From an uncultured Dehalococcoidia bacterium (lineage in GTDB: Bacteria; Chloroflexota; Dehalococcoidia; DSTF01; JACRBR01), in the NCBI GenBank assembly GCA_964487335.1, contig CAZAPT010000003.1, positions 75,509 to 139,508 on the forward strand: 64,000 bases of DNA. Direction: 5' to 3'. The notes under the pieces were generated by a model. It was not told the DNA's origin. It did no database searches and saw nothing but the letters and a program-made list of their open reading frames with translations. The translations under genes were made by a program, and so were the position numbers. The number at the start of each line of letters is the position of its first letter. The first letter of the stretch is position 1. This document shows positions 11,636 through 62,023 of this stretch, piece by piece.

Positions 11636-11754
11636 GGGGGTGCGGTCGGTCGTCGCGCTGCGCCGAGATCGGCGAGGATCTCGTCGCCCAGAGGCCGGAT
11701 CTATCCCTTGCAAGATGTGTTGTTTCCAATCTAATCGATAATGGAGCCGGGCCG

Positions 11755-17279: not shown

Positions 17280-17499
17280 CGCGCTCACCTGTGTAACCAT
17301 TTGCGCCGAGTATAAGCCTCGCGCAGAGAAGCGACAATAGATCAACACCCATGATCAATTGCTGCGCGATCACTTCGTGCGCGCGACGCGCATAGACGCA
17401 GCGATGAGGTGGAGTCGATCGCTGCGTCTGGCGCGGGGAGAACCACTGTTACGTCAATCGGAACGCATTGCCCCAACAATGCGCGTGCGCCCGTTACGT

Positions 17500-48051: not shown

Positions 48052-48120
48052 CACGAGTAGTTGGACGCGTCTTTCAGTCGTGAGGGGATCGCCGAGCGTA
48101 GCGCGGGCCAACTTTTTTCG

Positions 48121-49005
48121 ATGACCACCCGCTTCCCCGACTGGGTCGAGCCCATGGCGGCCACGCTGACCCGCGAGCGCGTCGAGTCGCCCGACTGGGT
48201 CTTCGAGCGCAAGTACGACGGCATTCGCCTGCTCGCCTTCATGCACGGCCGCGACGTCCGCCTGCTCTCTCGCAACCGCCTGCTGCAAAACGCCGCGTAT
48301 CCGCAGGTCGTCGATGCCGTCGCCGCACTCCCGGTCCGCGAGGTGATCCTCGATGGCGAAGCGACGGGCGTCTGGGGCAAGCACGACGGCGTCGTCGCCT
48401 ACAACGTCTTCGACATCCTCTGGCTCGACGGTCGCGATATGACGCGGCTCCCGCTCGACGAACGCCGCGACGTGCTCGAGAAGTTGCCCCTCCGCGCGCC
48501 GCTGGTGCTCGTCCAGCGGCTCCGCGGATCGGCCCCGTGGGAGCGCGCCTGCCGCGACGGCTGGGAGGGCGTGATCGCCAAGCGCCGCGACGCGCCGTAC
48601 GAGCATCGCCGCTCGCCGCTCTGGCTGAAGATGAAATGCGAGGCGACGCAGGAACTCGTCGTCGGCGGCTTCACCGATCCGCAGGGCGGACGCGTTGGCC
48701 TCGGCTCCTTGCTCGTCGGCTACTACGAGGGCAACGACTTCGTCTTCGCCGGCAAGGTCGGCACCGGCTTCGACTGGAGCCTGTTACGAGACCTCCGCTC
48801 CCGCCTCGACGCGCTCGAGATCCCGCAGCCTCCCTTCACCAGGGCCACGAACCTGCCGAAGCGCGCCCACTGGGTTCGACCAGAGATCGTCGTGCAGACC
48901 GCCTTCACCGAATGGACCGTCCACGGCAAGCTGCGCCATCCACGCTTCGTCGGTGTTCGCATCGACAAGTCCGCCCGCGAAGTGGTCCGCGAGGAACCCA
49001 AGTGA
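48121..49005 (+). CDS. ATP-dependent DNA ligase (LigD/LigC-type ligase domain only)
   Basis: KxDGxR adenylation motif (ERKYDGIR) plus the nucleotidyltransferase and OB-fold region. ATG start. Confidence 0.8.
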   Translation: MTTRFPDWVEPMAATLTRERVESPDWVFERKYDGIRLLAFMHGRDVRLLSRNRLLQNAAYPQVVDAVAALPVREVILDGEATGVWGKHDGVVAYNVFDILWLDGRDMTRLPLDERRDVLEKLPLRAPLVLVQRLRGSAPWERACRDGWEGVIAKRRDAPYEHRRSPLWLKMKCEATQELVVGGFTDPQGGRVGLGSLLVGYYEGNDFVFAGKVGTGFDWSLLRDLRSRLDALEIPQPPFTRATNLPKRAHWVRPEIVVQTAFTEWTVHGKLRHPRFVGVRIDKSAREVVREEPK

Positions 49006-49079
49006 GCATCCCACGCGACTCCCTCCCAACCCACCGACGCGTAGTCCGTGAGCAGGTGTTCCCGTATCCTTCGAACCAC

Positions 49080-50105
49080 ATGACGCTCGAATCCATCCAC
49101 ACAGAACCAGAGCTGACAGCTCCCGTATCGCTCTGCACACCAGTCGGCCATCTGAACCGTGACGCCGTCGGCTGGTCGCGCCACCCCCTCCACCGATGCA
49201 ACCTTCCGCCGTCGCTCGCCCGCAAGAAGAAATGGAACTACTGGGCAGTCGACGACGGTAACCTCCTCTTCTCCGCCACCATTGCTGACATAGACCGTCT
49301 CCAGCTCGCCGGCGCCTACGTCTTCGATCGCCACAGCCACCGTCATATCGACAAGTCCGCCGTCGTGGCCCCGAATACGAGTCAGATGCCCGAAGCCATC
49401 GCCGGTGACATCGCGATCGAGCACCCCGACCTTCACGTCGCTCTCATGGACGAAGGCGCCGGCACGCGCATCCGCGTGACAGCGAACGATTTCGGCGGCG
49501 CGCCGCTGGAGGCGGACATCGTCATCGAGCGTCCTGCCGGTCACGAAACGCTAAACGTTGTAATCCCTTGGAGCGACGAAGAGTTCCAGTTCACGTCGAA
49601 GCAGAACACGCTGCCCGCGTCAGGCTTCGTCCGCCTCGGCGACGAGCAGATCGATTTCGCCTCGCCGAGCTTCGGTTGCCTCGACTACGGTCGCGGCGTC
49701 TGGCCCGAATGCACGAAGTGGAACTGGGGCGCCGCGTCTGGGGTACAGCACGGGCGCATCGTCGGCCTCAACCTCGGCGGCCAGTGGACCGATGGCACCG
49801 GCATGACCGAGAACGGCATCTGCGTCGATGGCCGCCTGACGAAGATCGGCGAAGACCTCTCCTTCGACTACGACCGCGCCGCCCTCATGAAGCCATGGCG
49901 CATCGACGCGGCGTCGAGCGATCGCGTTGACCTGCGCTTCGACCCGGAGTTCGAGCGCGTTTCCGAGAGTGGCAACGCGAAGTTCTACATGAACGTCCAC
50001 CAGATGTTCGGTACGTACTCGGGCCATGTCACGCCCGACCGGGGCGATCCCATCGAGCTCCGCGATCTCTTTGGCTGGGTCGAAGATCAGGAAGCTCGCT
50101 GGTGA
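49080..50105 (+). CDS. conserved hypothetical protein (possibly DUF2804 family)
   Basis: 341-aa ORF with an ATG start and a Trp-rich conserved-looking core. The family name is from memory and is low-confidence. Confidence 0.5.
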   Translation: MTLESIHTEPELTAPVSLCTPVGHLNRDAVGWSRHPLHRCNLPPSLARKKKWNYWAVDDGNLLFSATIADIDRLQLAGAYVFDRHSHRHIDKSAVVAPNTSQMPEAIAGDIAIEHPDLHVALMDEGAGTRIRVTANDFGGAPLEADIVIERPAGHETLNVVIPWSDEEFQFTSKQNTLPASGFVRLGDEQIDFASPSFGCLDYGRGVWPECTKWNWGAASGVQHGRIVGLNLGGQWTDGTGMTENGICVDGRLTKIGEDLSFDYDRAALMKPWRIDAASSDRVDLRFDPEFERVSESGNAKFYMNVHQMFGTYSGHVTPDRGDPIELRDLFGWVEDQEARW

Positions 50106-50122
50106 CTAGAGCACACACATAG

Positions 50123-50542
50123 ATGCCCGTCGAACTCACGGACGAGATGACCCGCGCGATGGACAATGCGCTTGTCGAGCGCAGCCCTTGCCTCGTTGCC
50201 ACCGCATCTGCCGAAGGAGTACCGGACGTCTCCTATCGCGGGAGCGTGCTCGTGTTCGATGCGGAGCACCTCGCGTTCTGGGAGCGCGCGAAAGGCGAGA
50301 CGCTCGCGAATATCCGCGAGAATCCGTATGTCTGCGTCCTGTACCGCAACGCCGAGACGCGTGTGAACTGGCGGTTCTACGGCGAAGCGCAGATCCTCGA
50401 AGATGGCCCCGTCCGTGAGCAGATCATGGCGCGCGTGAACGCCTTCGAGTTGGCGCAGGATCCCGACCGCATCGGATTCGCCGTTCTGATCCGTGTTGAT
50501 CGCGTCCGTGCCCGCAACGACACCATCATGGCGCGCGACTAG
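50123..50542 (+). CDS. pyridoxamine 5'-phosphate oxidase-family (FMN/F420-binding split-barrel) protein
   Basis: Size and pattern (…PCLVATASAEGVPDVSYRGS…) are typical of PPOX-class split-barrel proteins. Confidence 0.7.
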   Translation: MPVELTDEMTRAMDNALVERSPCLVATASAEGVPDVSYRGSVLVFDAEHLAFWERAKGETLANIRENPYVCVLYRNAETRVNWRFYGEAQILEDGPVREQIMARVNAFELAQDPDRIGFAVLIRVDRVRARNDTIMARD

Positions 50543-50556
50543 CGTTCGCCCGCGCG

Positions 50557-51003
50557 TTACTTCCGTCGCACCAGGAACACCGGGATCACGCGTTTCGTCC
50601 GCTGCTGATACTCCGCGTACGGCGGAAACGCCTTCACCGCGCGGTCCCACCAGACCTGACGCTCGTCGCCCGACAGCTCGCGCACTACGACGCGGAATGG
50701 CTCCGGGCCGTCCTGAAACAGCACCTCGTCAGGGTTCGCCCTGAGGTTCCAGTACCAGACCGGATGCTTCGGCGCTCCGCCCACCGACGCCACGATCGCG
50801 TATTCGCCGTCGTGTTCGACCCGCATCAGCGGCGTCTTCCGCACCTTCCCGGTCGTCTTCCCCCGCGTCGTCACGATGATGATCGGCAGCCCTGTGTCCC
50901 GCAGGGTGTTCGCCTCGCGGCCGCCCGTGCGCTCGTACGTCTCGACCTGATCGCGCACCCAGCCCCACGGACTCGCCTCGTATTCGCCTTCAATCTTCGC
51001 CAT
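50557..51003 (-). CDS. deazaflavin (F420H2)-dependent nitroreductase-family oxidoreductase (Ddn/DUF385-like)
   Basis: The pattern …IIVTTRGKTTGKVRKTPLM…PVWYWNLRANP… is characteristic of the Ddn family. Confidence 0.75.
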   Translation of the reverse strand: MAKIEGEYEASPWGWVRDQVETYERTGGREANTLRDTGLPIIIVTTRGKTTGKVRKTPLMRVEHDGEYAIVASVGGAPKHPVWYWNLRANPDEVLFQDGPEPFRVVVRELSGDERQVWWDRAVKAFPPYAEYQQRTKRVIPVFLVRRK

Positions 51004-51012
51004 GACGCCTCC

Positions 51013-51133
51013 ACTTACTCCCGCGGCCGAACGCGAACACGATCTCCGCGGACCGTACCGCGGGCTTTCACCCGGCGAGTAGCTCCTCGAACCCTACTCC
51101 CGCGGACGCCCGAACCCGAACATGATCTGCGCG
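51013..51133. repeat. ~40-bp imperfect direct repeat duplicating the 3' end of the acyl-CoA dehydrogenase gene
   Basis: Copy A at 51013..51050 (cttactcccgcggccgaacgcgaacacgatctccgcgg) and copy B at 51093..51133 (cctactcccgcggacgcccgaacccgaacatgatctgcgcg). Copy B encodes the last residues of the ACAD gene; copy A is intergenic. Confidence 0.3.
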
Positions 51134-52344
51134 ATCCGCCGCATCTGGATCTCCTCCGATCCCTCCGTGATCCGGTACCGCCGGTGGTGCCGGTAGATGT
51201 GCTCGAACGGCATATGCCGCGTGTACCCGATGCCGCCGTGCACCTGGATCGCCCGGTCCGCCGCCTCGCACACGAGCCGGTTCGCGCGATAGTTGCACAT
51301 CGCCACCTTGTCGCTGATCGCCATGTGGTGCTTCTGGTCCAGCTCCCACGCCGTCTTCCGCACGAGCTGCCGCACCATCTCGCACTCCGTCTGAAGCTCG
51401 ACGAGCGGCCACTGGATCGCCTGCCGTGCCGCGAGCGGCTGCCCGAACGTCACGCGCTCGCGCGCGTACGCCACCGACTGGTTGACGCAGTACTGCGCCG
51501 CCCCGACTCCCGATGCCGCCTGCCGGATCCGGTTCTCGTGAGTGAAGGTGTTCGCAAGCGCCAGCCCGTCGCCCTCGCGTCCCAGCATCGCCGTTGCCGG
51601 CACGCGCACATCGGTCAGCGAAACCTCCGCATGGTCAGTCGGCATGTTGAACGTCCACCACATGAAGTCCACGGAGAACCCAGGGGTGCTTGTCGGGACG
51701 ATGAAGCAACTGATCCCCTCGGCTCGTCCTTCGTCTCCGGACGTCCGCGCGAAGATCAGGTCGTGGGTCGCGGCATGCATGCCGCTGTTGAACCGCTTCT
51801 GGCCATTGATGATCCACTCGTCGCCGTCGCGCGTCGCCTTCGTCTCGAGCCACGACGCGTCCGAGCCGTGGTTCGGCTCGGTCAGCCCGAACGCGACGCG
51901 AGTGCGCCCCGTGAACATCCCGTCCAGGAACTCCCTCTTCTGCTCCTCGCTGCCGTAGTTCTCCCACATCTTGATCGTCGGGAAGTTGCCGACGATCGAC
52001 GACTCGTTCTGAAGGTCGTTGTGCAGCCCCAGCCCCTTCGCCGCCAGGTGCTCGCGGATGATCGCCATCGCCAGGTTCGTGCCGTCCCGCCCGCCGTACT
52101 TCGCGGGGATGCCGTACCGCAGGTAGCCCGCACGGTCGGCGCGCAACCGCATCTCGCGGAGCAGCTCCTCCCAGTCCTTCCGCGGCACACCGCCGTTCTC
52201 GTAGTCCGTCCGCGCGTACTCGCGCCGGTGGTCGAAGAAGCGGATGTTGTCGTCCTGCTCTTCGAGCGGCTTGATCTCCGCCTCGATGAACGCATCGAGG
52301 TCATCGAGCACCTGCTGTATGTCCGCCGGAATATCGAAGTCCAT
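51094..52344 (-). CDS. acyl-CoA dehydrogenase
   Basis: ATG at 52344 with GGGGAG five nt upstream. ACAD motifs (FGLTEPNHGSDAS…). Confidence 0.85.
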   Translation of the reverse strand: MDFDIPADIQQVLDDLDAFIEAEIKPLEEQDDNIRFFDHRREYARTDYENGGVPRKDWEELLREMRLRADRAGYLRYGIPAKYGGRDGTNLAMAIIREHLAAKGLGLHNDLQNESSIVGNFPTIKMWENYGSEEQKREFLDGMFTGRTRVAFGLTEPNHGSDASWLETKATRDGDEWIINGQKRFNSGMHAATHDLIFARTSGDEGRAEGISCFIVPTSTPGFSVDFMWWTFNMPTDHAEVSLTDVRVPATAMLGREGDGLALANTFTHENRIRQAASGVGAAQYCVNQSVAYARERVTFGQPLAARQAIQWPLVELQTECEMVRQLVRKTAWELDQKHHMAISDKVAMCNYRANRLVCEAADRAIQVHGGIGYTRHMPFEHIYRHHRRYRITEGSEEIQMRRIAQIMFGFGRPRE

Positions 52345-52453
52345 GCCAAGCTCCCCTGCCACCTGAATGCCGCATGTCAGGCCTCAGGATCGGGTGTTGG
52401 CCGCACTCGCGAAAGGGGAGTCCCACAGGTTTCGCGCGAAGTCGCACCGTCCT

Positions 52454-53962
52454 CTATGATGCCGGGACCATCGACGCGGCACATTCGGCGCCGATCCGTG
52501 CGCTCTCACGCACAATCGCTTCGACGTCCTGCGCCCGCGTCCGGAAGTTCGTGACGCACGCCCGCAGCGCGCTTCGGCCGCCGCTGAGGCTGGCGTTCGA
52601 TATCATCGCGATCCCGCGGCGCTCCAGCTCGTCGATGACCCTGCTCTGCAGCGCCTCCAGCGCCTCTCCCTTGAGGCCCGGCGGCGTCACTCGCCAGCAC
52701 ACGATCGAGAGGCTTTGCGGCGCCGCCAGCTCCAGCGTCGGCGTCGCTTGGACGAGCTCCGCCATGTACTGCGCCAGCCGGATGTTGAAGTCGATCATCT
52801 CGGCGTACCCGTCCCGACCCAATGCTTGGAGAGCGAGCCATACCTTGAGCGCCCGGTTCGGCCGCGAGTTCTCGGGGGTCCGCTCCAGGAAGTCCACGTG
52901 CGCGCCGTTTGCCGCCGTCTCCAGGTAGGAGGCGTGGAACGCGAACGACCGCTCGAGCAGCCCCCGCTCCCGAACCAGCACGACGCCAGCATCGATCGCA
53001 GAGTAGAGCCACTTGTGCGGGTCGCACGCGACCGAGTCGGCCTCGGAGAGCGCCCGCAGCTCCGGCGGGCACGACGGCGTCGCCGCCGCAAACGCCCCGT
53101 ACGCCCCATCGACGTGCAGCCACAGCTGTTCCGCTCGCGCCACCTTGCCGAGCTCCGCGATCGGATCGATCGCGCCAGTACCGACAGTACCGGCCGTGGC
53201 GACGATCGCAATCGGCAGGTCGCCGCGTGCCCGGTCTTCCGCGATCATCTGCGTCAGCGCGTCCACGCGTATCCGGTACTGCTCGTCGACCGGCACGCTG
53301 CGCACAGCGTCCCGACCCATTCCGAGCAGCTCCGCCGCCTGCTCGTGGCAGTAGTGCAGCTCGCTGCTCGCATAGATCCGCACCTGCGGCGCGTTGCCCT
53401 CCGGCCCGCGCATGCCGAATCGCCGCGTGTCCCACGGCGCCTTCGTGTCGCGCAGCACCGCCTGCGTCACGATGTTCGCCATCTGCCCCCCGCTGACGAA
53501 CACCCCTTCGGTCGTCGCCGGCAGCCCCACCATGTCGGCGATCCAGCCTAGAGTCTGCACTTCGATCGCCGTCGCCGAAGGGGCGACGCGCCACAGCCCG
53601 GTGTTCTGGTTGATCGCCGCTGAAACGAGACTTCCAAGCACGGAAATCGGCGTCGGAGCTCCCATGATGTACGCCAGCCAGCGCGGATGCCCGTTGTATG
53701 CAGCCGCCGGGATGACATCTTCCTCGATGCGCCGCACCAGCTCGTCGAACGGCAACGGCGAAGCAGGGAGCGGACCCGAGAACAGCTCCGCGACCGCGTC
53801 CGTGTCCGCAGGCGAGGGATGTCGAACATCCCACCGCGTCGATGCGGCCGCGAGCACATCAAGAAGGCGCGCGCCCTTCACGCACCAGGCCTCCGCGTCC
53901 CAGTCGAACCCCTGCGGCGCTTGTTCGAGGCCGCGTCGCAGCTCTGCCAGACGCTCACTCAT
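52454..53962 (-). CDS. group II pyridoxal-phosphate-dependent decarboxylase (aromatic-amino-acid / 2,4-diaminobutyrate-decarboxylase-like)
   Basis: SGGQMANI motif, and a CDPHKW lysine in the PLP-binding loop. ATG at 53962 overlaps the upstream gene stop (ATGA). Confidence 0.8.
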   Translation of the reverse strand: MSERLAELRRGLEQAPQGFDWDAEAWCVKGARLLDVLAAASTRWDVRHPSPADTDAVAELFSGPLPASPLPFDELVRRIEEDVIPAAAYNGHPRWLAYIMGAPTPISVLGSLVSAAINQNTGLWRVAPSATAIEVQTLGWIADMVGLPATTEGVFVSGGQMANIVTQAVLRDTKAPWDTRRFGMRGPEGNAPQVRIYASSELHYCHEQAAELLGMGRDAVRSVPVDEQYRIRVDALTQMIAEDRARGDLPIAIVATAGTVGTGAIDPIAELGKVARAEQLWLHVDGAYGAFAAATPSCPPELRALSEADSVACDPHKWLYSAIDAGVVLVRERGLLERSFAFHASYLETAANGAHVDFLERTPENSRPNRALKVWLALQALGRDGYAEMIDFNIRLAQYMAELVQATPTLELAAPQSLSIVCWRVTPPGLKGEALEALQSRVIDELERRGIAMISNASLSGGRSALRACVTNFRTRAQDVEAIVRESARIGAECAASMVPAS

Positions 53963-54843
53963 GGCTGCCTCCGCTCTCTGACGCCCTCGAAGAGGTCTTC
54001 CTCCCGCTCGCTCGTCCGCACGAGGGAAAACACGCGGTGAAACGTCAACCGTCCCCAGAGCACCTTGTGGTACTCCTCCGGCAGATCGAGCAGCTTCTGG
54101 TACCCGGGAAGCTGCGATCGATGGCATCGGATCGCCTCCCAGACACGCTTCCAGTGCGCCGACGTATCGACCCACGCGGACACGGACCAGTGCGGCCACG
54201 TCACCGGCCGCCGCTCCGCTCCATCGATCAGCATCCGCAGCTCTCCGAACGCCTGCTCATACGCGTCGGCGACCTCCTGCGTCCATGCGAAGTAGTACAA
54301 CTTCGAGACGGCATGTGGTGCCAGCCCCGAGCCCTCACAGTAGGTCGAGTCGGCGGCGGCGACCACTGCGGACGTCGCCGCGCGTGTCACTGCGATGTGG
54401 TCGGGGTGACCGTAAATGCCGTTCTGGTCGAACGTCACTACTACATCGGGGCGGAGTCGTCGGATGTGGGCGACAAGCTGCCGCACCAACTCGCCCTGGT
54501 CGGCGTTCTCGACCTCGCCATCGACGTAATCGAGAAGGTTGACCTCGCGAATACCGAGGACCGCCGCCGCGTCGCGCAGTTCTCGCTCGCGGATCTGCCC
54601 GAGGGCCGTCAATCCGGGGTTATCGTCTGGCCTTCCGAACCACCCACGCTCGCCGCGGGTAGCAGTCACGAGATACGTCTCCAGCCCCTCCGACGCATAC
54701 CGCGCGATGATGCCTCCAAGCCCAAGTGACTCGTCGTCCGGATGCGCCAGGATGCACAACATGCGCAGCGGCGTCGAGCCTCGCGTCGAGTCCGCGATCG
54801 ACTGATACGATTCGTCTTCCGGTGGTACTGCTTGCCGCGCCAT
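53959..54843 (-). CDS. PIG-L/LmbE-family deacetylase (MshB/BshB/Mca-like)
   Basis: AHPDDE metal-binding motif and YGHPDH motif. Confidence 0.75.
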   Translation of the reverse strand: MARQAVPPEDESYQSIADSTRGSTPLRMLCILAHPDDESLGLGGIIARYASEGLETYLVTATRGERGWFGRPDDNPGLTALGQIRERELRDAAAVLGIREVNLLDYVDGEVENADQGELVRQLVAHIRRLRPDVVVTFDQNGIYGHPDHIAVTRAATSAVVAAADSTYCEGSGLAPHAVSKLYYFAWTQEVADAYEQAFGELRMLIDGAERRPVTWPHWSVSAWVDTSAHWKRVWEAIRCHRSQLPGYQKLLDLPEEYHKVLWGRLTFHRVFSLVRTSEREEDLFEGVRERRQP

Positions 54844-54861
54844 GACGAGCCTCTGTGCTGC

Positions 54862-56097
54862 CTACAGACCTTGGGGTTCCATGCCCAGCGCGATCGCGCC
54901 GATATAGGCGAACGCCAGGTTCGCGCCCAGCGGCTGCATGAACGCGCCGGCTCGCGCGTCGCGATACAGCCTCGAGAGCGGATGGGCATTCATGAACGCC
55001 CCTCCGCCAACGATCGTCATCGCGCGGTCGACGATACGCACCGCCGCCTGGTTGACGAATGCCTTTGCCGCCTGCCCCTCCGCAAACACGGCATGTGCCT
55101 CTTCGAGCGAGCCGTAGCCCGCCGGATGCAACAGGTAGTGCTCGTCGATGAGCCTCAGCGCACGGTCAAGGATGGCGCGAGCCGCACCCAGGTCGATGGC
55201 GTTCTCGGCGGCGAGATGAATCATAGTGCCACTTACGGAGGCATCGCCCTTCCGGGAACGTCGCTGAGCAACAGCCTCAACCGAAATGCGGTTCGCGTAC
55301 TCCGCGACGCCCATCGAGGCGGACGCATGCGCGGGACCGAAGGTCAGTGTCTGCTCCAGGTACTCCGCCGTATACACGCCGGCGAGGGCGCCGCGGCTTG
55401 GTGCGTTTGGAACACACGCGTCCTCGAATGTCACGGACACGCTGCCCGAAGCGCGCATGCCGAGCGCGTCCCAGTCGTCGTGCACCGTCACGCCGGGAGT
55501 GTTTCGGGGCACGAGCGCGTACCCGTAACGCTCTTCGCCATCTCCGCCGGTGTAATCCACGGCAACCGAGAAGTGGGTGGCGGCGGGCGCCAGGCTGCTG
55601 ATGATCTTACGGCCATTCAATGTCCAGCCGTTGTCGCCGCGGACCGCCGTGGTCTTCGGCCGGAGCAGGTTCTGGTCGGGCTCGCTCACCGCCGCACCTA
55701 CCACAGCATTGGCGCGCACGATCGCCCGCATCTGCGCGCCCGCGGCCGCGGCTCGCTTCCCGTCCTCGCGGTTGCACGCGATCTCGTGGATGCGCGCCAT
55801 CGACAGCACCGAGATGAGATGCATGTTGGTGCCTACGGTCAGCGAAGGATCGCCCTCCGCCAGCCGGCTCGCCGCCACGAAAACGTCCTGTACCGAGTCT
55901 ACGCCCAGGCCGCCGTACGCTTCCGGAATCGGCGAGTACAGATAGCCCGACAGCTTCAGCTCCGCCAGGTTCTCGAAAGGAAAGGAGCCGTCGGCGTCAT
56001 GCCGCGCAGCCCGCTCTGCGAAGTCGGCCGCGTGCTTTTCTGCCAGTGCTACGAGCTTGCCTCCGGCTTCAGTCTCTGCCTTCATTTGATGTGACAT
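54862..56097 (-). CDS. acyl-CoA-dehydrogenase-fold flavoenzyme (SfnB/DszC/N-oxygenase-like)
   Basis: ACAD fold throughout, but the sequence diverges from fatty-acyl ACADs. Lies immediately upstream of the deacetylase and decarboxylase genes on the same strand. Confidence 0.7.
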   Translation of the reverse strand: MSHQMKAETEAGGKLVALAEKHAADFAERAARHDADGSFPFENLAELKLSGYLYSPIPEAYGGLGVDSVQDVFVAASRLAEGDPSLTVGTNMHLISVLSMARIHEIACNREDGKRAAAAGAQMRAIVRANAVVGAAVSEPDQNLLRPKTTAVRGDNGWTLNGRKIISSLAPAATHFSVAVDYTGGDGEERYGYALVPRNTPGVTVHDDWDALGMRASGSVSVTFEDACVPNAPSRGALAGVYTAEYLEQTLTFGPAHASASMGVAEYANRISVEAVAQRRSRKGDASVSGTMIHLAAENAIDLGAARAILDRALRLIDEHYLLHPAGYGSLEEAHAVFAEGQAAKAFVNQAAVRIVDRAMTIVGGGAFMNAHPLSRLYRDARAGAFMQPLGANLAFAYIGAIALGMEPQGL

Positions 56098-56168
56098 CGG
56101 TTTTCTCCTTCACGATCTCGCGCACCTTCGGCAGCAGTGGGCCACTTCGCAGCTCGCGGTGCTCGGCG

Positions 56169-56414
56169 TCAAAAGCCGGCGCGTGGCCACGGGCACGACG
56201 TACTGAATCGGCCGAACTCGTCCCGGTAGATGTAGCCCGCGTCTTCGTGACGTCGGACCCACGCACCGCCGCGCCGAGGATCCTCGCCGAGTAGTGTGGC
56301 AATCTCGTCGCAACTCAGCGGACCAGCGTCGCCGATAACCGAGTAAATGCTGTCTGCCTGTGTTCGCGTCTTCATCAGAGTCTGCATCACTGACCTCCGG
56401 TTCTGGAACGGCAT
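56169..56414 (-). CDS. small hypothetical protein, possible winged-helix regulator
   Basis: 81-aa ORF with an ATG start. …GPLSCDEIATLLGED… resembles a helix-turn-helix recognition segment. Confidence 0.3.
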   Translation of the reverse strand: MPFQNRRSVMQTLMKTRTQADSIYSVIGDAGPLSCDEIATLLGEDPRRGGAWVRRHEDAGYIYRDEFGRFSTSCPWPRAGF

Positions 56415-56417
56415 TCA

Positions 56418-56630
56418 TCAACAATCGACACATGGGGGCGTTGGTCGCCGACCTAGCGTTGCGCTGAGCCGAATAGCCCGATGCGCAACAGCCGCGACGA
56501 ACCCGCGAACAGTCGTGCGCGGAGGGATGTTCGAATCGGTCCTCGTGACGTCGTACGTCCAGACGTGCTGCCGCGCGTCTCGCTCGAACTCTCTCAGCTT
56601 CTCGGTCAGGTACAGCTGCTGATCCCACAT
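56418..56630 (-). CDS. small hypothetical protein (70 aa)
   Basis: ATG-initiated ORF with reasonable codon usage, sitting between two better-supported genes. Confidence 0.2.
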   Translation of the reverse strand: MWDQQLYLTEKLREFERDARQHVWTYDVTRTDSNIPPRTTVRGFVAAVAHRAIRLSATLGRRPTPPCVDC

Positions 56631-56734
56631 GTCGGTCTCGCCTTCCGTTCCGTACCCCTCTGGCGTTCGGCTGTTGATGACGAAGCCGCCGGCAGGAGGA
56701 GGGGCGGCCACCCGCCGGCATGCGTCTTCGTCGA

Positions 56735-57235
56735 TCAGACCGCGCTCCCGACGGGAGTCACCGCGAGGCGGATGCTCGCAAGGTGCGCGCCCACGTGCGC
56801 GATCAAGACGGGGCCCTCGATGAGCTGCTCGGTGCTCACCGACGCGCCATCTGCGAGGCTCAGCTTGCCCGTGCGGTCGAGCTGCTCGTCGCTGAGCCCG
56901 CGGATGTACGCCGCGGTCGAGGCGGCGTTGGTCCGCAGCTCCTTCACGACCTCGCCCTGGGTTGCCGAGCGGTTCCGCTCCGCGCGGCCCTCGTTCTTGC
57001 TGTTGAGTTCGTCCCACGTCAGCTGCGGCATCGGTCGTGCCGCCGCTGAGGCGGTGATGAACTCCATCTCCAGCGGGATCTGCCCCGACACGTGCTGCGC
57101 GGTCTGTCCGACCGTCCAGCCCTCGTCATCGCAGATCGCTGCCCACTCGGCCGGAGTGAACTTCTCGACCGTCTCGGCGAACTCGGCTACTGCCGCTTCG
57201 AACCGCTGGGCTAACTCCTTCGCACGCTCACTCAT
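56735..57235 (-). CDS. DinB/MDMPI-like (mycothiol-dependent-enzyme N-terminal-domain) protein
   Basis: …DEGWTVGQTAQHVSG… matches the EGWTVRDLxAHL signature of DinB_2/MST-type proteins. AAGGAGGA six nt upstream of the ATG at 57235. Confidence 0.55.
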   Translation of the reverse strand: MSERAKELAQRFEAAVAEFAETVEKFTPAEWAAICDDEGWTVGQTAQHVSGQIPLEMEFITASAAARPMPQLTWDELNSKNEGRAERNRSATQGEVVKELRTNAASTAAYIRGLSDEQLDRTGKLSLADGASVSTEQLIEGPVLIAHVGAHLASIRLAVTPVGSAV

Positions 57236-57543
57236 CTTCCTGTCCTCCTTCATTTGAGTAGGCGTCTCGCCGATCTCGACGCCACACTTCGAGTCTGGCA
57301 GGCAGACGCCGCCTCCGAATCGTGGAGAGTACGGATATCAGCAGACAACGAGTACGGAGATCGCGATGCCCGCGAGCCGCGATCCCTCCGCTTGGGAATC
57401 GAAGTAGGCGCCCGGAGGCCATTACGAGCGCCACGATGAACGTCGGGGCTGAGGCAAAATCCCTTCGCGCGCGGTCGAAGTCCACGCGAGGTGACCGCTG
57501 CAGATAGGGATGCTTCGACGGGGATGCCATCCCCTCGCGTCGC

Positions 57544-60500
57544 TTAGTCGCCCAGCAACCCGCGCTTCGCACCCCACGCCGCGATCTGGGCACGAGAAGT
57601 GAATCCGAGCTTGGTGAGGATGTTTCCGACGTGCGTTTCGACGGTCCGCTCGCTGAGCACGAGCTCCTCGGCGATCTGCCGGTTACCGTGGCCCCGCGTC
57701 ACCAGCGCTGCGACCTCACGCTCGCGTTCCGTCAGGCCCTCCCACTCCCGCTTCGCCGCCCGCCGCGCCGTGGGCGCGCGAACCTGCAACAGTGCATCGC
57801 CCGCATCGAGGAACCGCTGGCGAGCCTCAGCGTCGAGCCCTTCGGCGAGCTCTAGCGCCGCCGCGCGCGCCTCGTCGCTCTTGGCCTCGGATTCGGCGCG
57901 GCGATCTGCCGCAGCATAGGCGCGTGAAAGCGCGCACTGCGTTCGCCAGAGCCACGGCGACGTCCCGTGAACGGCAGCGGATGCTTCGGCCTGCTTCAGC
58001 AGATCGCAAGCCGAAGCGTGATCGCCGATCGCGGAGAATGCGTGAGCCCGGGTGACCAGTAGCGCCGAAGGCAAGCGCGAAGGCAGTGGGTCGATGATCG
58101 TGCTCAGAAGCCGAGCGGTCAGCGCCAGCGCGTCGTCAGCGCGCTTCTCAGCCACCAGCAGCTCGGCCATCGCCCACGCAACGCGTCGTTCAGGCAGCGT
58201 CTGCCGCGAGCAGGATTCCAGCGAACAATCGCCAAGTATCTCGCGCGCCGCTACGGTATCTCCGCGCTGGAGGTACGCGAGTGCGAGATACGCGCTCACG
58301 TTGCCGATCCACCACGCGGACTTCAGGGATCGCACCAGGGGAAGCGCTGCCTCGAGATGTCGGATCGCGTCATCCGTCTGCAGCATCAGCCAGTGCAGCT
58401 GCCCGAGCGAGAAGTGCCCTCCAGTGATCCACTGCTCATGCTGGATCTCCGTCGCGATGCGCAGCCCCTTCTCGATGAGCGCCATCCCCTCCGCGACCGC
58501 TCCGAACGACCCGACCGCACCGCCCAGCGTCCAGTACGCGAACGCGCTTCCCACGGATGAGCCGCTGCGCTCGGCGAGCCTGAGCGCGGCTTCACCGTCG
58601 CTACGCACGCCATCGAGCGTGCGCGTGCTGGCGCAGACCGTCTCGGCCATGCTGGGACTGCCGTATGTCGTCCGGCCGGAGAGGGCCGACATCAACCGTT
58701 GCTCGTCCCCGAGTTCCAACAGCAATTCGATCGCCTCGCCGTAGTGGTCTACACAGCGCGGAAGATCGCCATGCATGCCGTACGCCATCGCGAGTAGATC
58801 GAGCGTCTCGGCAATACCGTGTCGATCGTCCGCGCTACTGAACATGTCCAGTGCGGCTCGATGCTGCTCGATTCCCTCTGACGTCCGCCCAACGTTGATC
58901 AGCCAGTTCCCTAGCCGGTTCTGGCTCCGGCCGAGGACCGCGGTCTCCTGACCGGCTCGGGCGAGGTCGAGCGCGCCCTGGTAGAACTCACCGGCGCGGT
59001 CGTAATCGCGCACCGACCAAAGCGCTCCGAGGTCAATGAGCGCCTGCCACTCGCCCGCCTGATCGCCCGACCCGCGTGACAGTCGCAGCGCGGCTTCGTG
59101 ATCGTCTCGCGCCCCGTCGAAGTTGCCGAGGGCGTCGTGTGCCCGTCCTCGCGCGCTGTATATCCACGCCGAAGTTCCGACCCCCGTATGGCTGGCTGCT
59201 TCGAGCGCGCGAGTGAAGTGCGCCATCGCCGCAGCGGGAGAGAACAGCTCCTGCGCCTGTTCGCCGGCGCGGCACGCGTACTCGAACGCCCGATCCCACG
59301 TGTTGGCCTCGTATGTGTGCATCGCCAGCTCGCCCAGCCGCGACTCGCCGGATGCGTGACCGACCGATTCCAGCGCGGCCGCGATCTCCGCGTGCACGGC
59401 GCGCCGTTGGCTTCGCAGTAACGAGGAGTACACCGCCTGCTGCGTTAGCGCGTGCCGGAATGCGAAGCGGTCCACCGCCTCCTCGACGACGAGCTGCGCG
59501 TCGACCAGCTCTTTCACGAGATGCAGAAGATCGTGCTCGTCCTCGTCGCTGAGTCGGGCCAGCAACGGCAGGTCGAAGCGTCGCCCCGCGACCGACGCTC
59601 GGATCAGGACGCGCTGCGCCCCGGGGCTCAGCTGTGCCGTGCGACGCCGAACCGCCTCCTGCACGCTCCTCGGTATCTGATGCTCGGCGAGCGTTCCCGG
59701 CAACGCGGCGCCGTTGTGCTGGGGAAGATCGTTCGATGTGGCGAGCGACTTCAGCACTTCCTCGATGAAGAACGGATTGCCGTCCGTGAGCTCGTACAGG
59801 ACCTGCACGAAGTCGTCCCGGAGTAGTTGTTCGCCGTCGAGCATCGCCCGGACCATCAACCTCACGTCGGATCGTGAGAGCGGTCGAAGCGTGAAGTCAC
59901 GCGCTAGCCGCCTTCGTTCCAGCTCCGCGAGAAAGCTCGCGAGTTGCCCGCTGGCTTCGTCGACGCGGTACGTCAGTAACAACGCGAGCGGAAGTTCTTC
60001 GGCGCGCCGCGCGAGCTGCAGCAGGAACTCGATGCTCGCATCGTCGCTCCAGTGCAAATCCTCGAAGACCACCAGCAACGGGCCGTCGCTGCATAGCCGC
60101 ACGATAGGCTGCAACAGCGCTTGCAGGAGTCGGCGCTTCTCTTGCTCTGGCTCGTTCGTGGTGACGTCGTCGATCGTGCCGAGAGGGGCGCCAAGCTCTG
60201 GCACGAGCTTGACGATGTCCGATGACTCGCGACCGATGACGATCTTGAGTTCGTCATCGGGTAGGCTCAGCGCGAACGTGCGCCACAGGTCGGCCACCGG
60301 CGCGAACGGCACTGCCGCATCCCCCTCGAAGCACCCTGCAGTGAGGATCTTCACGCCCGCATGGATCTCACGCGCGCGGGCGACAAGCTCCCGAACCAGC
60401 CTCGACTTCCCGACGCCTGCCTCACCGGCGACCGTGATCGTCCGCCCCCGACCTTCGATGACCTCGGCAAACGCCGCCGCGAAGTCGGTCAGATATCTGT

Positions 60501-60552
60501 CGCGCCCGATCAGGATGGGACAGGTAATCGTGGCCTCAGACATGGTCTCCAT
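57544..60552 (-). CDS. large ATP-binding LuxR-family regulator (LAL/MalT-like: AAA+ domain, TPR-like region, C-terminal LuxR helix-turn-helix)
   Basis: Walker A motif VAGEAGVGKS near the N-terminus. C-terminal LTEREREVAALVTRGHGNRQIAEELVLSERTVETHVGNILTKLG. ATG at 60552/60543 chosen because the upstream part of the ORF is Arg-rich noncoding-like. Confidence 0.8.
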   Translation of the reverse strand: METMSEATITCPILIGRDRYLTDFAAAFAEVIEGRGRTITVAGEAGVGKSRLVRELVARAREIHAGVKILTAGCFEGDAAVPFAPVADLWRTFALSLPDDELKIVIGRESSDIVKLVPELGAPLGTIDDVTTNEPEQEKRRLLQALLQPIVRLCSDGPLLVVFEDLHWSDDASIEFLLQLARRAEELPLALLLTYRVDEASGQLASFLAELERRRLARDFTLRPLSRSDVRLMVRAMLDGEQLLRDDFVQVLYELTDGNPFFIEEVLKSLATSNDLPQHNGAALPGTLAEHQIPRSVQEAVRRRTAQLSPGAQRVLIRASVAGRRFDLPLLARLSDEDEHDLLHLVKELVDAQLVVEEAVDRFAFRHALTQQAVYSSLLRSQRRAVHAEIAAALESVGHASGESRLGELAMHTYEANTWDRAFEYACRAGEQAQELFSPAAAMAHFTRALEAASHTGVGTSAWIYSARGRAHDALGNFDGARDDHEAALRLSRGSGDQAGEWQALIDLGALWSVRDYDRAGEFYQGALDLARAGQETAVLGRSQNRLGNWLINVGRTSEGIEQHRAALDMFSSADDRHGIAETLDLLAMAYGMHGDLPRCVDHYGEAIELLLELGDEQRLMSALSGRTTYGSPSMAETVCASTRTLDGVRSDGEAALRLAERSGSSVGSAFAYWTLGGAVGSFGAVAEGMALIEKGLRIATEIQHEQWITGGHFSLGQLHWLMLQTDDAIRHLEAALPLVRSLKSAWWIGNVSAYLALAYLQRGDTVAAREILGDCSLESCSRQTLPERRVAWAMAELLVAEKRADDALALTARLLSTIIDPLPSRLPSALLVTRAHAFSAIGDHASACDLLKQAEASAAVHGTSPWLWRTQCALSRAYAAADRRAESEAKSDEARAAALELAEGLDAEARQRFLDAGDALLQVRAPTARRAAKREWEGLTEREREVAALVTRGHGNRQIAEELVLSERTVETHVGNILTKLGFTSRAQIAAWGAKRGLLGD

Positions 60553-61030: not shown

Positions 61031-62023
61031 ATGCCAGTCGACAGTCGAGAAGTGCATCTCGTCGCGCGGCCCGAGGGAATGCCCAAGCCATCGGACTTCG
61101 CCGTAGTCGAGACGACCGTGCCGGACGCAGGCGAAGGCCAGATACTCGTGCAGAACCTCTACAACAGCATCGACCCGGCGACGCGGCCACGGCTCGCGCA
61201 ACAGCCACTCGAGACGCCGCCGTGGGGCTACGCCATCGGACGCGTAGCGCAGTCACGGCATCCCGACTATCGCGAAGGTGACATCGTTCAGGGCCTCGGG
61301 TATCGCGAGGCCTACGTCTCGGACGGCCGCGGCATCGCTAAGGTCGCGACGGATCCATCGTTCCCGCTAACGGTGTACCTTGGCGCGCTTGGGGTGGCGG
61401 GGTTCGTCGCTTACGGCGGGCTGCTGGAGGTCGGCAAACTTCAGCAGAGCGAGCAGGTGTTCGTTTCGACCGCCGCGGGAGCGGTCGGCTCCTTCGCCGT
61501 CCAGATCGCGAAGTTGCGCGGATGTTACGTGATCGGAAGCACGGGCTCGGACGAGAAGTGCCGGTTCCTGACGGACGAGCTGGGCATCGACGCCGCTGTC
61601 AATTACAAATCGCAACCGATCCGCAAGGCGCTAAAGGACGCCGCGCCAAAGGGCATCGACGTTTACTTCGACAATGTCGGCGGCGATCATCTCGATGCCG
61701 CGCTCCCGCGCATGAACTTGCTTGGCCGCGTCGCGGTATGCGGAATGATCTCGGCGTATAACACCGAGGGAGCGATCTCCGCGCCGGTGACGACGCTCTC
61801 AAACATCATCTACAGCCGCGTGACGATCCGTGGCTTCGTGACGGCTGACTTCCCGCACCTGCGCGAGCGGTTCGCGGCGGAGATGGGCGGCTGGCTGAAG
61901 GACGGCACCGTGAAGTACCGCGAGACGATTCTTGAGGGCATCGAGAGCTCGCCCGCCGCGCTGATCGCCATGCTCAGCGGCGAAAACATCGGCAAGACGA
62001 TGGTGCGCGTGCTCTCTCGGTAG
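61031..62023 (+). CDS. NADP-dependent oxidoreductase, MDR superfamily (YncB / prostaglandin-reductase-like)
   Basis: GGAGG upstream of the ATG. Cofactor-binding motif AAGAVGSFAVQIAKLRG and the MDR fold pattern. Confidence 0.8.
   Translation: MPVDSREVHLVARPEGMPKPSDFAVVETTVPDAGEGQILVQNLYNSIDPATRPRLAQQPLETPPWGYAIGRVAQSRHPDYREGDIVQGLGYREAYVSDGRGIAKVATDPSFPLTVYLGALGVAGFVAYGGLLEVGKLQQSEQVFVSTAAGAVGSFAVQIAKLRGCYVIGSTGSDEKCRFLTDELGIDAAVNYKSQPIRKALKDAAPKGIDVYFDNVGGDHLDAALPRMNLLGRVAVCGMISAYNTEGAISAPVTTLSNIIYSRVTIRGFVTADFPHLRERFAAEMGGWLKDGTVKYRETILEGIESSPAALIAMLSGENIGKTMVRVLSR

Follow-up and report, generated by a model that had tools for sequence, protein, structure and literature searches.

A composite gene cluster behind a candidate LAL box in an uncultured Dehalococcoidia bacterium

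Nine adjacent genes in the genome of an uncultured Dehalococcoidia bacterium encode a large regulator and an unusual set of enzymes, which raises the question of whether they form one pathway and what that pathway might do. The window analyzed here is the whole 64,000-nucleotide stretch of contig CAZAPT010000003.1 in which they lie. An earlier note on this DNA described nine co-oriented minus-strand genes at 50557-60552; all nine open reading frames (9/9) are indeed on the minus strand at those coordinates, and every domain call made in the note is upheld by Pfam. The short gaps or 4-nt overlaps that it reported are found everywhere except in the 308-nt spacer between the LAL and DinB-fold genes. 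From the LAL gene downwards, the intergenic gaps are 308, 104, 30, 71, 18, 91, and 90 nt, and the ATG of the decarboxylase gene overlaps the stop codon of the LmbE gene by 4 nt, as the note had it. Two mechanically called reading frames (56110-56721 and 57228-57593) were rejected as noncoding on account of their Arg-rich translations and a third-position GC content (GC3) of ∼0.6. Co-orientation by itself is weak evidence for a unit. The arrangement goes beyond chance because it is kept in other genomes and is accompanied by a common cis-element, and neither the conservation nor the element extends over the whole run. Across the loci compared, the nine genes are not kept together as a single cluster, and the evidence gives good support to a real yet composite gene cluster.

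The LmbE-decarboxylase pair is well supported as an old, tightly coupled unit with an ABM-fold protein as its normal leader. The first member (53959..54843, minus strand) is a predicted LmbE/PIG-L zinc amidohydrolase of 294 amino acids (Pfam PIG-L) that resembles Mca and MshB over its full length. The metal and catalytic residues of MshB (residue roles from PMC4101496) have aligned counterparts in its AHPDDES and GHPDH motifs, and its NCBIfam scores of 126 bits for Mca and 115 bits for MshB are both under cut-off. The protein is thus Mca/MshB-like, in keeping with the LmbE-like deacetylase proposed earlier, and is an orthologue of neither Mca nor the housekeeping MshB. The second member (52454..53962, minus strand) is a predicted group II PLP-dependent amino-acid decarboxylase of 502 amino acids (PF00282, 229 bits), with Lys317 in a DPHKW motif; catalytic motifs are intact in both proteins. 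It reaches the cut-off of no NCBIfam equivalog and is approximately equidistant (about 200-208 bits) from the Sphaerobacter enzyme 4RIT, a gut Trp decarboxylase, DOPA decarboxylase, and DfoJ. An LmbE gene (68-78% identity) lies immediately 5' of the decarboxylase gene in 24 of the 27 metagenomic loci whose decarboxylase is at least 66% identical to that of the window, and in none of the 34 loci below 66%; three close decarboxylase orthologues lack LmbE. The usual gene before the pair encodes a 104-aa ABM protein, a homologue of which is found upstream in 20 loci, and in the window the nitrososynthase-like oxygenase stands in its place. The pairing of the decarboxylase with an ACAD-fold N-oxygenase, as first suggested, gives way to LmbE plus the ABM protein as the constant partners.

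This oxygenase (54862..56097, minus strand) is predicted from Pfam and PDB comparisons to be an ACAD-fold flavin-dependent monooxygenase. It scores 166 bits against KijD3, 143 against DnmZ, and 142 against ORF36, compared to at most 65 for true acyl-CoA dehydrogenases (ACADs), and its Gln388 (FMQP motif) occupies the position of the ACAD catalytic Glu when aligned to the true ACAD of the window. Its grouping with nitrososynthases by score and the replacement of Glu by Gln both agree with the N-oxygenase idea raised before. The enzyme could also act as an S-oxygenase, as the best NCBIfam match is SfnB (111 bits, under cut-off). Homologues at 46-75% identity are spread in Thermoleophilia and Chloroflexota, where the family's partners include OsmC (53/80), flavin reductase (20/80), and AhpD-like CMD proteins; no flavin reductase partner was found in the window. 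The other protein of this fold (51094..52362, minus strand) has all three ACAD Pfam domains and a catalytic Glu400 in an ITEGS motif. Both members of the "two ACAD-fold enzymes" therefore have the fold, but this one is a true dehydrogenase and not a conserved partner: it is not found beside LmbE-decarboxylase elsewhere, except in locus L112, where a 92% orthologue lies 5' of ABM-LmbE-decarboxylase. The Ddn-type F420H2-dependent (quinone) reductase (50557..51003, minus strand; F420H2_quin_red, PF04075 and TIGR00026, both above cut-off) is likewise not kept next to the pair, with a distant, convergent Ddn-family gene after the decarboxylase in L096. The true ACAD and Ddn are probably neighbors only, outside the system. 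A PNPOx-like gene also lies downstream in the window.

At the other end of the run, the LAL-type regulator (57544..60552, minus strand; alternative start at 60603, giving 1019 aa) combines an AAA_16 ATPase, a TPR sensor region, and a C-terminal LuxR/GerE HTH, as assigned by Pfam. LAL-like proteins are numerous (1702 listed at an E value of 1e-60 or better), and orthologues at 57-61% identity were found in five other uncultured genomes (L085, L161, L162, L163/164, and L165), where their presumed targets are methyltransferase, DinB, NMO, and SDR genes. A quinone-oxidoreductase-like gene is divergent from the LAL gene in the window. The next gene (56735..57235, minus strand; ribosome-binding site AAGGAGGA) encodes a 166-aa protein assigned by Pfam to the DinB_2/MDMPI_N fold, a putative thiol S-transferase or thiol-dependent enzyme whose only three His residues (48, 147, and 151) are arranged as H...HxxxH. 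DinB orthologues (66-70% identity) adjoin LAL orthologues in L085, L162, and L165, and they accompany LAL, usually plus a methyltransferase, and not LmbE. The LmbE-decarboxylase pair occurs together with LAL-DinB in only 2 of ∼20 distinct contexts; joint conservation of the DinB-LmbE S-conjugate module envisaged earlier stops at these two genomes.

Two small reading frames follow the DinB gene, and only one of them stood up as a gene. The 72-aa frame at 56169..56387 (minus strand) has a GGAGG ribosome-binding site, an independent gene-finder call, a C-terminal YRDEFG..TSCPWPRxGF motif, and a homologue in L085 that is 56% identical and lies 3' of DinB. Substitutions between the two genes are distributed 22/16/40 over the codon positions, and different codons are used at 19 of 38 identical residues; judged by these sequence comparisons, it is a real gene. 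Its product is possibly a winged helix, the AlphaFold model being of low confidence (pLDDT 54). The 70-aa frame at 56418..56630 (minus strand) is unproven: it has a modest third-position GC of 0.69 and a plausible ribosome-binding site, and neither a homologue in the fetched loci nor a family match turned up.

The 308-nt LAL-DinB spacer contains a conserved bipartite direct-repeat element (57318..57363, minus strand), a candidate LAL box or regulated promoter. The repeats are TCTCCGTA (57360-57353) and TATCCGTA (57337-57330), spaced 23 nt start to start; the second is followed by CTCTCCACGA (57329-57320), and the box ends 84 nt before the DinB ATG. The consensus, T(C/A)CGT(A/G)-N15-T(C/A)CGT(A/G)NTYTCCACGA, was built from the spacers of the window, L085, L161, L162, and L163, with the element lying 79-125 nt 5' of target genes in L085 (two copies), L161, L162, and L163/164. 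Once fixed, the pattern was recovered in two loci outside its derivation set, L083 and L165, the latter fetched only after the pattern had been fixed. Exact matches to the box 15-mer are confined to the derivation spacers and L083. A position weight matrix scan of 2.17 Mb gave no further match above 18 bits, an Rfam search with the box gave none, and the window contains one box at 0 mismatches, with relaxed matches at chance level. To our knowledge, its sequence is new. The box-preceded genes encode the DinB-fold protein, an Rv2258c-like methyltransferase, and ACAD-fold oxygenases and, in one genome, form an oxygenase-thioesterase-LmbE-decarboxylase operon; across the six related uncultured (probably Chloroflexota) genomes, these genes are presumably LAL controlled. 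Co-occurrence suggests that the LAL protein binds the box. The earlier view of a pathway-specific regulator is plausible for the genes downstream, since the conserved box travels with LAL orthologues.

In L085, a unit of the 72-aa gene, DinB, and LAL is divergent from an operon encoding an ACAD-fold protein, a 4HBT protein, a small protein (s66), LmbE, and the decarboxylase, with no other synteny to the window. The ACAD-fold protein there belongs to the same oxygenase clade (165 bits against 5z8t and 106 against nitrososynthases); in L085, too, a flavin monooxygenase takes the place of ABM. In that locus, the box stands ahead of the DinB gene as well as the oxygenase-LmbE-decarboxylase operon, and in L083 it lies 125 nt 5' of a 71%-identical orthologue of the window oxygenase. 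The window thus has the appearance of regulon units joined behind one box. Good support exists for three target units in tandem behind this single box, namely, DinB with the small protein, the oxygenase, and LmbE-decarboxylase. They probably form one transcript of six genes, as the spacing and the lack of a second box suggest; simple scans of the run detected no promoters and no informative terminators.

As for function, the operon is most likely an inducible detoxification or conjugate-processing system, to judge from its predicted enzymes. The zinc amidase would cleave an amide bond, to an N-acetyl group or, as in Mca/Bca, to an amino sugar, and release an alpha-amino acid. An S-substituted cysteine, from a low-molecular-weight-thiol conjugate made by the DinB-fold enzyme, is the most appealing candidate for this amino acid. 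The decarboxylase would turn it into an amine, and an oxygenase (ABM or flavin dependent) could oxidize the N or S of substrate or product. The unit as a whole would serve as an inducible response to electrophiles or xenobiotics and not as an antibiotic pathway. A chemical precedent exists in lincosamide biosynthesis, where a mycothiol conjugate has its cysteinyl residue processed step by step by LmbV (DinB type), LmbE (Mca-like), and LmbF/CcbF, which are PLP enzymes (PMC5518657). The detoxification theme is favored by the DinB/MDMPI fold, the full-length Mca-like match, the targets of LAL orthologues, the OsmC, flavin reductase, and CMD partners, and the redox-type neighbors in the window. 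Against this reading stand the equal distance of the decarboxylase from aromatic and diamine decarboxylases, the co-conservation of DinB with LAL instead of LmbE, and the lack of thiol-biosynthesis genes and of a flavin reductase partner in the window. Moreover, if an N-acetylated thiol were cleaved in the Mca manner, the result would be an N-acetyl-cysteine conjugate, unusable by a PLP enzyme without deacetylation. A LAL/box-controlled composite operon for electrophile or xenobiotic response and conjugate processing is our best explanation of the whole, held tentatively and at somewhat less than an even chance.

Neither PKS nor NRPS nor any other scaffold enzyme is encoded in the flanks of the run, and with no scaffold-forming enzymes nearby, the natural-product pathway of the earlier note is less likely than detoxification or processing. 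Its specific form, in which the decarboxylase yields an amine, the ACAD-fold enzyme N-hydroxylates or N-oxidizes it, LmbE removes a protecting acetyl, and LAL activates the genes, is unlikely, although a decarboxylase followed by a flavin N-hydroxylase is established logic (VlmD/VlmH/VlmR, DesA/DesB; PMC7347517). Amino-group oxygenases are the nearest relatives of the oxygenase, secondary-metabolite clusters are often under LAL regulators, and the box links oxygenase and decarboxylase operon to one regulator. Set against this are the constant partners of the decarboxylase (LmbE and ABM, not an ACAD-fold enzyme), oxygenase orthologues (46-73% identity) that sit without any decarboxylase, the lack nearby of an N-N-forming enzyme, ligase, acyltransferase, NIS synthetase, or flavin reductase, and the resemblance of the remaining box targets to detoxification enzymes. 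Fortuitous adjacency of co-oriented housekeeping and stress genes, with LmbE-decarboxylase as the sole functional pair, is quite improbable: LAL-DinB and the 72-aa gene lie beside oxygenase-LmbE-decarboxylase in two genomes with different layouts and otherwise no synteny, and DinB, the L085 operon, and the L083 oxygenase all have the same rare cis-element ahead of them. It would account for neighbors that mostly differ among genomes, for the nonconserved true ACAD and Ddn, and for DinB, Ddn, ACAD, and LAL families that are highly expanded in these phyla.

Amino-sugar or GlcNAc-glycoside modification or catabolism, in which LmbE deacetylates GlcNAc, the oxygenase oxidizes the sugar amine, and the decarboxylase takes an attached amino-acid moiety as its substrate, is slightly less probable again. 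GlcNAc derivatives are the main substrates of LmbE-family enzymes (MshB, BshB, and chitobiose deacetylases), the Arg/Asp/His substrate positions are apparently kept (IRERE at 84, YVDG at 106, and GHPDH at 146; PMC4101496), the closest relatives of the oxygenase with a solved structure act on dTDP-amino sugars, and oxygenase and LmbE are also adjacent in L008, L058, and L068. However, genes for glycosyltransferases, sugar nucleotides, or sugar catabolism are absent from the cluster and its flanks, the kinship of the oxygenase with nitrososynthases is no more than distant, OsmC is the usual companion of its family, and the group II decarboxylase is left without a role. Least probable is biosynthesis of a Chloroflexota-specific low-molecular-weight thiol or GlcN-based cofactor, with LmbE as an MshB/BshB-type deacetylase and the decarboxylase tailoring the amino-acid moiety. 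The full-length similarity to MshB/Mca, the wide conservation of the ABM-LmbE-decarboxylase trio, which suggests a housekeeping role, and thiol-linked neighbors at some loci (OsmC, AhpD-like, thioredoxin reductase-glutaredoxin, and redoxins) fit it; the LmbE scores far under the MshB and BshB cut-offs, the close decarboxylase orthologues without LmbE, and the lack of an MshA/BshA glycosyltransferase or MshC/BshC cysteine ligase beside the pair at all loci examined do not.

The reading as an inducible electrophile or xenobiotic response invites comparison with mycothiol/bacillithiol S-conjugate detoxification (MST/Bst plus Mca/Bca). As there, the window has a co-oriented DinB_2/MDMPI_N-fold protein and Mca/MshB-like amidase, the latter with intact motifs, in a stress- or detoxification-type gene context. 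Unlike there, both proteins fall short of the NCBIfam cut-offs for Mca, MshB, BshB, and YfiT, DinB and LmbE are not co-conserved, and translational coupling ties the amidase to a PLP decarboxylase without counterpart in the known pathways, where the cysteine conjugate is N-acetylated and then exported. The lincosamide appendage genes (LmbV, LmbE, deacetylase, and LmbF/CcbF; PMC5518657) share the enzyme-type order, which in them runs from a DinB-type thiol exchange enzyme through an Mca-like amidase to a PLP enzyme for the liberated S-cysteinyl residue, and CcbF carries out a decarboxylation-linked reaction. However, neither LmbF nor CcbF is a group II decarboxylase, and both belong to a large biosynthetic cluster with scaffold enzymes, of which there are none here; nor does anything here point to mycothiol or ergothioneine. 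Valanimycin VlmD/VlmH/VlmR and desferrioxamine DesA/DesB (PMC7347517) also place a PLP decarboxylase and a flavin oxygenase (ACAD-fold, VlmH-like class) in one operon, but the cluster studied here has no flavin reductase, ligase, acyltransferase, or N-N-forming genes, and its decarboxylase-oxygenase pairing is not conserved, LmbE being the constant partner.

The nitrososynthases KijD3, DnmZ, and ORF36 align end to end with the window oxygenase (residues 9-407, 142-166 bits) and share its C-terminal HPLxRLxRDxxAGxFMQP, without the ACAD catalytic Glu; the similarity is nonetheless distant, the window has no dTDP-sugar genes, and the oxygenase family usually pairs with OsmC and flavin reductase. 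Finally, the window LAL protein has the architecture of MalT/LAL regulators, with an N-terminal AAA_16, TPR, and a C-terminal GerE HTH in ∼1000 aa. MalT boxes are direct repeats just 5' of the core promoter, and the candidate operator is likewise a direct-repeat pair in that position. Maltose genes or a polyketide cluster are not among its presumed targets, which are small genes of the detoxification type.

The enzyme families of this gene run are known; what is new is a widespread unit of an ABM-fold protein or ACAD-fold oxygenase, a PIG-L/LmbE amidase-like protein and a decarboxylase, together with a proposed regulon of a large ATP-binding LuxR-family (LAL) regulator and its DNA box. In the literature, we found no description of a Mca/MshB-like amidase paired with a group II decarboxylase and an exchangeable leading oxygenase, and nothing useful on PDB entries 5Z8T and 5GJ7.

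All nine minus-strand ORFs named in the earlier note exist, and each of its domain assignments was confirmed by Pfam. The run begins with the LAL regulator (57544-60552), which has an N-terminal ATPase (AAA_16 at residues 14-191), a TPR region (four TPR_12 matches) and a C-terminal LuxR helix-turn-helix (GerE at 940-992). Downstream lie a DinB_2/MDMPI_N protein (56735-57235; PF12867 at 35.5 and PF11716 at 38.8, both above cut-off), two small ORFs (56418-56630 and 56169-56387), the ACAD-fold flavoprotein (54862-56097; assigned by Pfam, with KijD3, DnmZ and ORF36 as relatives), the LmbE-like protein (53959-54843; PF02585 at 121 bits, cut-off 28) and a group II PLP decarboxylase (52454-53962; PF00282 at 229 bits). 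The last two genes encode an acyl-CoA dehydrogenase (51094-52362) and a Ddn-type protein (50557-51003). From LAL to Ddn, the intergenic gaps are 308, 104, 30, 71, 18, -4, 91 and 90 nt. Two long mechanical ORFs (56110-56721 and 57228-57593) were Arg-rich and were rejected as noncoding.

The surrounding DNA (∼66% G+C) is chromosomal, with dnaN, coaE, recQ, aspartokinase and Mur ligase genes present. Its proteins find their nearest homologues in MAGs of Chloroflexi and Dehalococcoidia, which makes an uncultured member of the Chloroflexota the probable source; identical proteins are encoded on one NCBI contig (153 kb) and one Logan contig. Across the whole 64 kb, no tRNA gene and no Rfam family at threshold was found; GC skew is negative throughout and never switches, despite dnaN at 16146-17348. 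Another LuxR-type regulator, which carries two PAS domains (10088-11713), is apparently unrelated to the cluster. Divergent from LAL is a zeta-crystallin/alkenal-reductase-like (quinone-oxidoreductase-like) gene (61031-62023, plus strand), beyond which lies an AHSA1/SRPBCC protein gene (62147-62632, minus strand); AHSA1-family genes also occur near oxygenase homologues in four comparison loci (L022, L026, L038 and L059). Past the Ddn end, all on the plus strand, are an ATP-dependent DNA ligase domain (48061-49005), a DUF2804 gene (49077-50105) and a PNPOx-like split-barrel gene (50123-50542). The region does not qualify as a natural-product BGC: within 39-64 kb, no core enzyme that would build a scaffold was found (PKS, NRPS, terpene synthase, RiPP precursor with maturase, or NIS synthetase), and the gene set is co-conserved only in part.

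Conservation was gauged on comparison loci, either GTDB species representatives or metagenomic, that carry homologues of window genes (labelled with the letter L). With the decarboxylase as anchor, LmbE (68-78% identity) is the gene directly upstream in 24 of the 27 metagenomic loci whose decarboxylase reaches at least 66% identity, often with overlapping stop and start codons, and in none of the 34 loci below 66%. Around the decarboxylase homologues of 52-64% identity, no neighbour is conserved, and these loci offer no hint of the substrate. The LmbE-decarboxylase pairing is common in uncultured soil Chloroflexota, and in 20 loci the gene before LmbE encodes a 104-aa ABM-fold protein. This recurrence makes ABM-LmbE-decarboxylase the canonical unit, around which further neighbours vary. 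Among loci with upstream DNA present, the clear exceptions are the window and L085, in which the ABM position is occupied by ACAD-fold oxygenases that belong to one broad clade; this looks like one oxygenase displacing another. In L096, the LmbE-decarboxylase pair lacks ABM and has unrelated pilus genes upstream.

The ACAD-fold oxygenase as anchor gave a different picture. Among the matches listed, all 80 oxygenase-anchored GTDB loci (46-56% identity; Thermoleophilia and Chloroflexota) lack the cluster, as do three closer metagenomic loci (64-73% identity); the setting is instead one of OsmC and flavin reductase genes. The usual partners of this family, among the matches listed, are OsmC (53 of 80 loci), flavin reductase (20 loci) and, in at least 14 of the loci, a large regulator of SARP or LAL type; LmbE follows the oxygenase solely in L008, L058 and L068 among these matches. 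Oxygenase homologues with OsmC-like and Flavin_Reduct genes, often with a SARP- or LAL-type AAA+TPR regulator, recur as a conserved module (L002 to L081; e.g., L003:10001-11986 and L067:3748-6305), apparently an uncharacterised two-component monooxygenase/OsmC system.

The nine-gene unit proposed in the earlier note is only partly borne out, and its last two genes are not conserved partners of the operon. The product of 51094-52362 is a true acyl-CoA dehydrogenase (ACAD2), with three ACAD Pfam domains and the catalytic Glu400 (ITEGS at 398), and that of 50557-51003 is a Ddn/F420H2-dependent reductase (PF04075 at 141 bits against 22; TIGR00026 at 102 bits against 46). In L112 (3-4470), a 92% orthologue of the window ACAD is found ∼1.3 kb upstream of an ABM-LmbE-decarboxylase operon; the proteins of that operon share only 68-72% identity with their window counterparts. 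In these two genomes, the ACAD flanks such an operon on opposite sides, which suggests replacement or rearrangement at this site. A distant Ddn-family (F420H2_quin_red) gene is convergent directly after the decarboxylase in L096 (11528-12055); since the family is large, this may be coincidence.

LAL orthologues (57-61% identity) occur in L085, L161, L162, L163/164 and L165. The downstream gene is a DinB orthologue in the window and L085 and an Rv2258c-like methyltransferase in L161 and L163; L162 (5445-13014) and L165 (7-6828) carry, in order, LAL, the Rv2258c-like methyltransferase, a DinB orthologue (66-70%), an NMO-type FMN enzyme and an SDR. This pattern indicates that DinB travels with the regulator, not with LmbE, so that the S-conjugate module of DinB plus LmbE envisaged previously is only partly borne out. 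Spacer comparison revealed a bipartite direct-repeat box, T(C/A)CGT(A/G)-N15-T(C/A)CGT(A/G)-N-T-Y-TCCACGA(A/T), and in all the compared spacers 79-95 nt separate its end from the start codon that follows. The window copy (57363-57318) lies between LAL and DinB, and the box sits ahead of the methyltransferase in L162 and L165. L085 has two copies, one upstream of DinB and the other in a divergent spacer toward an operon of ACAD' (the L085 oxygenase), thioesterase, s66, LmbE and decarboxylase.

A 15-nt degenerate pattern was derived from five box instances and searched against 2 x 2.2 Mb; at ∼25 bits, ∼0.1 chance matches are expected. It retrieved the source spacers and one new site, with the full bipartite architecture, 125 nt upstream of a 71% orthologue of the window oxygenase in L083. 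A 46-nt matrix gave nothing further above 18 bits. In L165, which was examined after the pattern had been fixed, the box stands precisely at the predicted place. An Rfam search of the spacers returned no family and no known RNA element, and sigma-70 promoter and terminator scans of the region were uninformative. Just past the LAL stop codon, the window has a GC-rich hairpin (GGGGATGGCATCCCC; 57507-57543) that lacks a T-run. The hairpin at the same place in L162 and L165 is clearer: it is GC-rich, ends in a T-run and stands between the LAL gene and box 1, abutting the latter, which argues that the target genes have their own promoter. Based on its co-occurrence with LAL orthologues, we interpret the box as a candidate LAL operator overlapping the regulated promoter, with putative activation of the adjacent promoters. 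Direct repeats fit a MalT-like protein. With target genes of at least five kinds over six genomes, the regulator and its box amount to a regulon hypothesis. A reading of the regulator as an anti-phage STAND NTPase was rejected, as PADLOC gave generic TPR and HTH matches only.

Of the genes next to the box, DinB encodes a protein whose only histidines (His48, His147 and His151) have the H...HxxxH arrangement of the DinB_2 fold. It scores low against YfiT (20.5 versus 160) and TIGR03083 (20.3 versus 50) in NCBIfam, and a PDB sequence search gave no match and no close characterised relative; by its four-helix DinB_2 fold and candidate three-His metal site, it belongs with the DinB/MST/YfiT proteins and is a putative thiol S-transferase. 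The two small ORFs fared differently. That at 56169-56387, which encodes a 72-aa protein, has a GGAGG ribosome-binding site, an independent gene call and a 56% identical homologue in L085 (2736-2942). Substitutions between the two number 22/16/40 by codon position, and for half of the residues that are identical the codons differ; the ribosome-binding site, gene call and third-position bias together mark it as a real gene. The ORF at 56418-56630 (70 aa) is a candidate gene; it was compared with the 66-aa ORF before L085 LmbE, and an equivalence was rejected for want of similarity. The 72-aa protein is confined to the two genomes having both modules (window and L085), belongs to no Pfam or NCBIfam family, and gave a single-sequence AlphaFold model (pLDDT 54) too poor for structure search. 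It has an invariant C-terminal TSCPWPRxGF tail with a single conserved Cys.

Over its entire length, the ACAD-fold protein can be aligned with three N-oxygenases of amino sugars, KijD3, DnmZ and ORF36 (142-166 bits), compared to at most 65 bits for true ACADs and ∼42 bits for DszC. It shares with KijD3 an FMQP motif, in which Gln388 stands opposite Glu400 of ACAD2; the alignment and this Gln in place of Glu identify it as an oxygenase. These relatives would suit modification of an amino sugar, which we regard as very unlikely: no dTDP-amino-sugar or glycosylated natural-product genes were found by the oxygenase, and the flanking genes serve housekeeping and redox functions only. The relatives of the oxygenase would also suit a pathway to an N-oxygenated amine, with the decarboxylase supplying the amine. 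The enzyme may oxidise either N or S, as its top-scoring NCBIfam model is SfnB, though beneath the cut-off. No Flavin_Reduct homologue for a two-component oxygenase was found in the window. We consider the N-oxygenated amine pathway unlikely.

The hydrolase has the AHPDDES (from residue 33) and GHPDH (from 145) motifs, which align with the zinc and catalytic residues of MshB; IRERE at 84 and YVDG at 106, outside the phmmer alignment, were identified by reading. In MshB, Arg68, Asp95 and His144 are conserved substrate-binding positions (PMC4101496). Domain and motifs place LmbE among the PIG-L zinc amidohydrolases, and such kinship would fit the biosynthesis of a thiol or cofactor. That explanation is highly improbable: although the Mca model matches over full length, LmbE scores far below cut-off for Mca (126/277), MshB (115/224), BshB2 (87/195) and BshB1 (82/183) and is neither MshB nor Mca. 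The decarboxylase is a group II enzyme (PLP-lysine motif DPHKW at 314-318; DGAYG at 285). It reaches none of the DABA RhbB, PanP, MfnA, His, Tyr or Glu models (best, RhbB, 200 bits against 900), and PDB relatives acting on aromatic amino acids or diamines, as well as uncharacterised group II enzymes, score alike at ∼200 bits; with equal scores regardless of substrate, its substrate is not readable from sequence. Fortuitous adjacency of these genes would accord with the oxygenase-anchored loci and with the unconserved ACAD and Ddn. The window and L085 have no other shared synteny, so that the repeated adjacency of LAL, DinB and the 72-aa protein gene and of oxygenase, LmbE and decarboxylase is unlikely to be chance; we judge this explanation quite unlikely.

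Our preferred explanation combines an architecture with a chemistry. In the window, one box is followed by DinB, two small ORFs, oxygenase, LmbE and decarboxylase. Since the same units are separate in relatives, box-bearing or independent, the window appears to join several regulon units in a single operon, and this architecture and regulon we consider probable. As to the chemistry, the strict coupling of hydrolase and decarboxylase suggests that the former makes the substrate of the latter, a free amino acid. The amide hydrolase would free an alpha-amino acid for the decarboxylase to take on, and the oxygenase would act before or after hydrolysis and decarboxylation. A bacillithiol-type conjugate, if cut by the LmbE amidase, would yield an S-substituted cysteine with a free amine, a plausible decarboxylase substrate. 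Gene context points to detoxification, given the DinB/MDMPI fold and Mca-like amidase; the further targets of the box, which are methyltransferase, NMO and SDR genes; the pairing of the oxygenase family with OsmC and AhpD-like proteins; and the neighbours of the run, namely Ddn, the PNPOx-like gene and, divergent from LAL, the quinone-oxidoreductase-like gene. The conjugate chemistry is tentative and on balance doubtful, and the combined statement of regulon and chemistry falls somewhat short of an even chance.

A more specific version, which we hold to be rather unlikely, is that the trio of ABM or flavin oxygenase, LmbE and decarboxylase represents an undescribed Chloroflexota pathway in which an amino acid is freed from an amide-linked conjugate and then decarboxylated. 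Such a pathway could be an alternative to the mercapturate route, converting cysteine S-conjugates to S-substituted cysteamines, or could lead toward a novel low-molecular-weight thiol of decarboxylated type. In a single lineage, the trio would have been recruited, alongside DinB, a methyltransferase and an N/S-oxygenase, to the control of a STAND-type LuxR regulator with a new direct-repeat box. Should the substrate turn out to be a common N-acetyl amino acid, the result is a modest annotation improvement. If it is a thiol conjugate, the unit would show how a large, little-studied phylum disposes of electrophiles, and perhaps its thiol. The nearest chemical precedent is thiol S-conjugate processing as in the lincosamide pathway, where a mycothiol conjugate has its cysteinyl residue processed successively by a DinB-type enzyme, the Mca-like LmbE and then PLP enzymes (PMC5518657).
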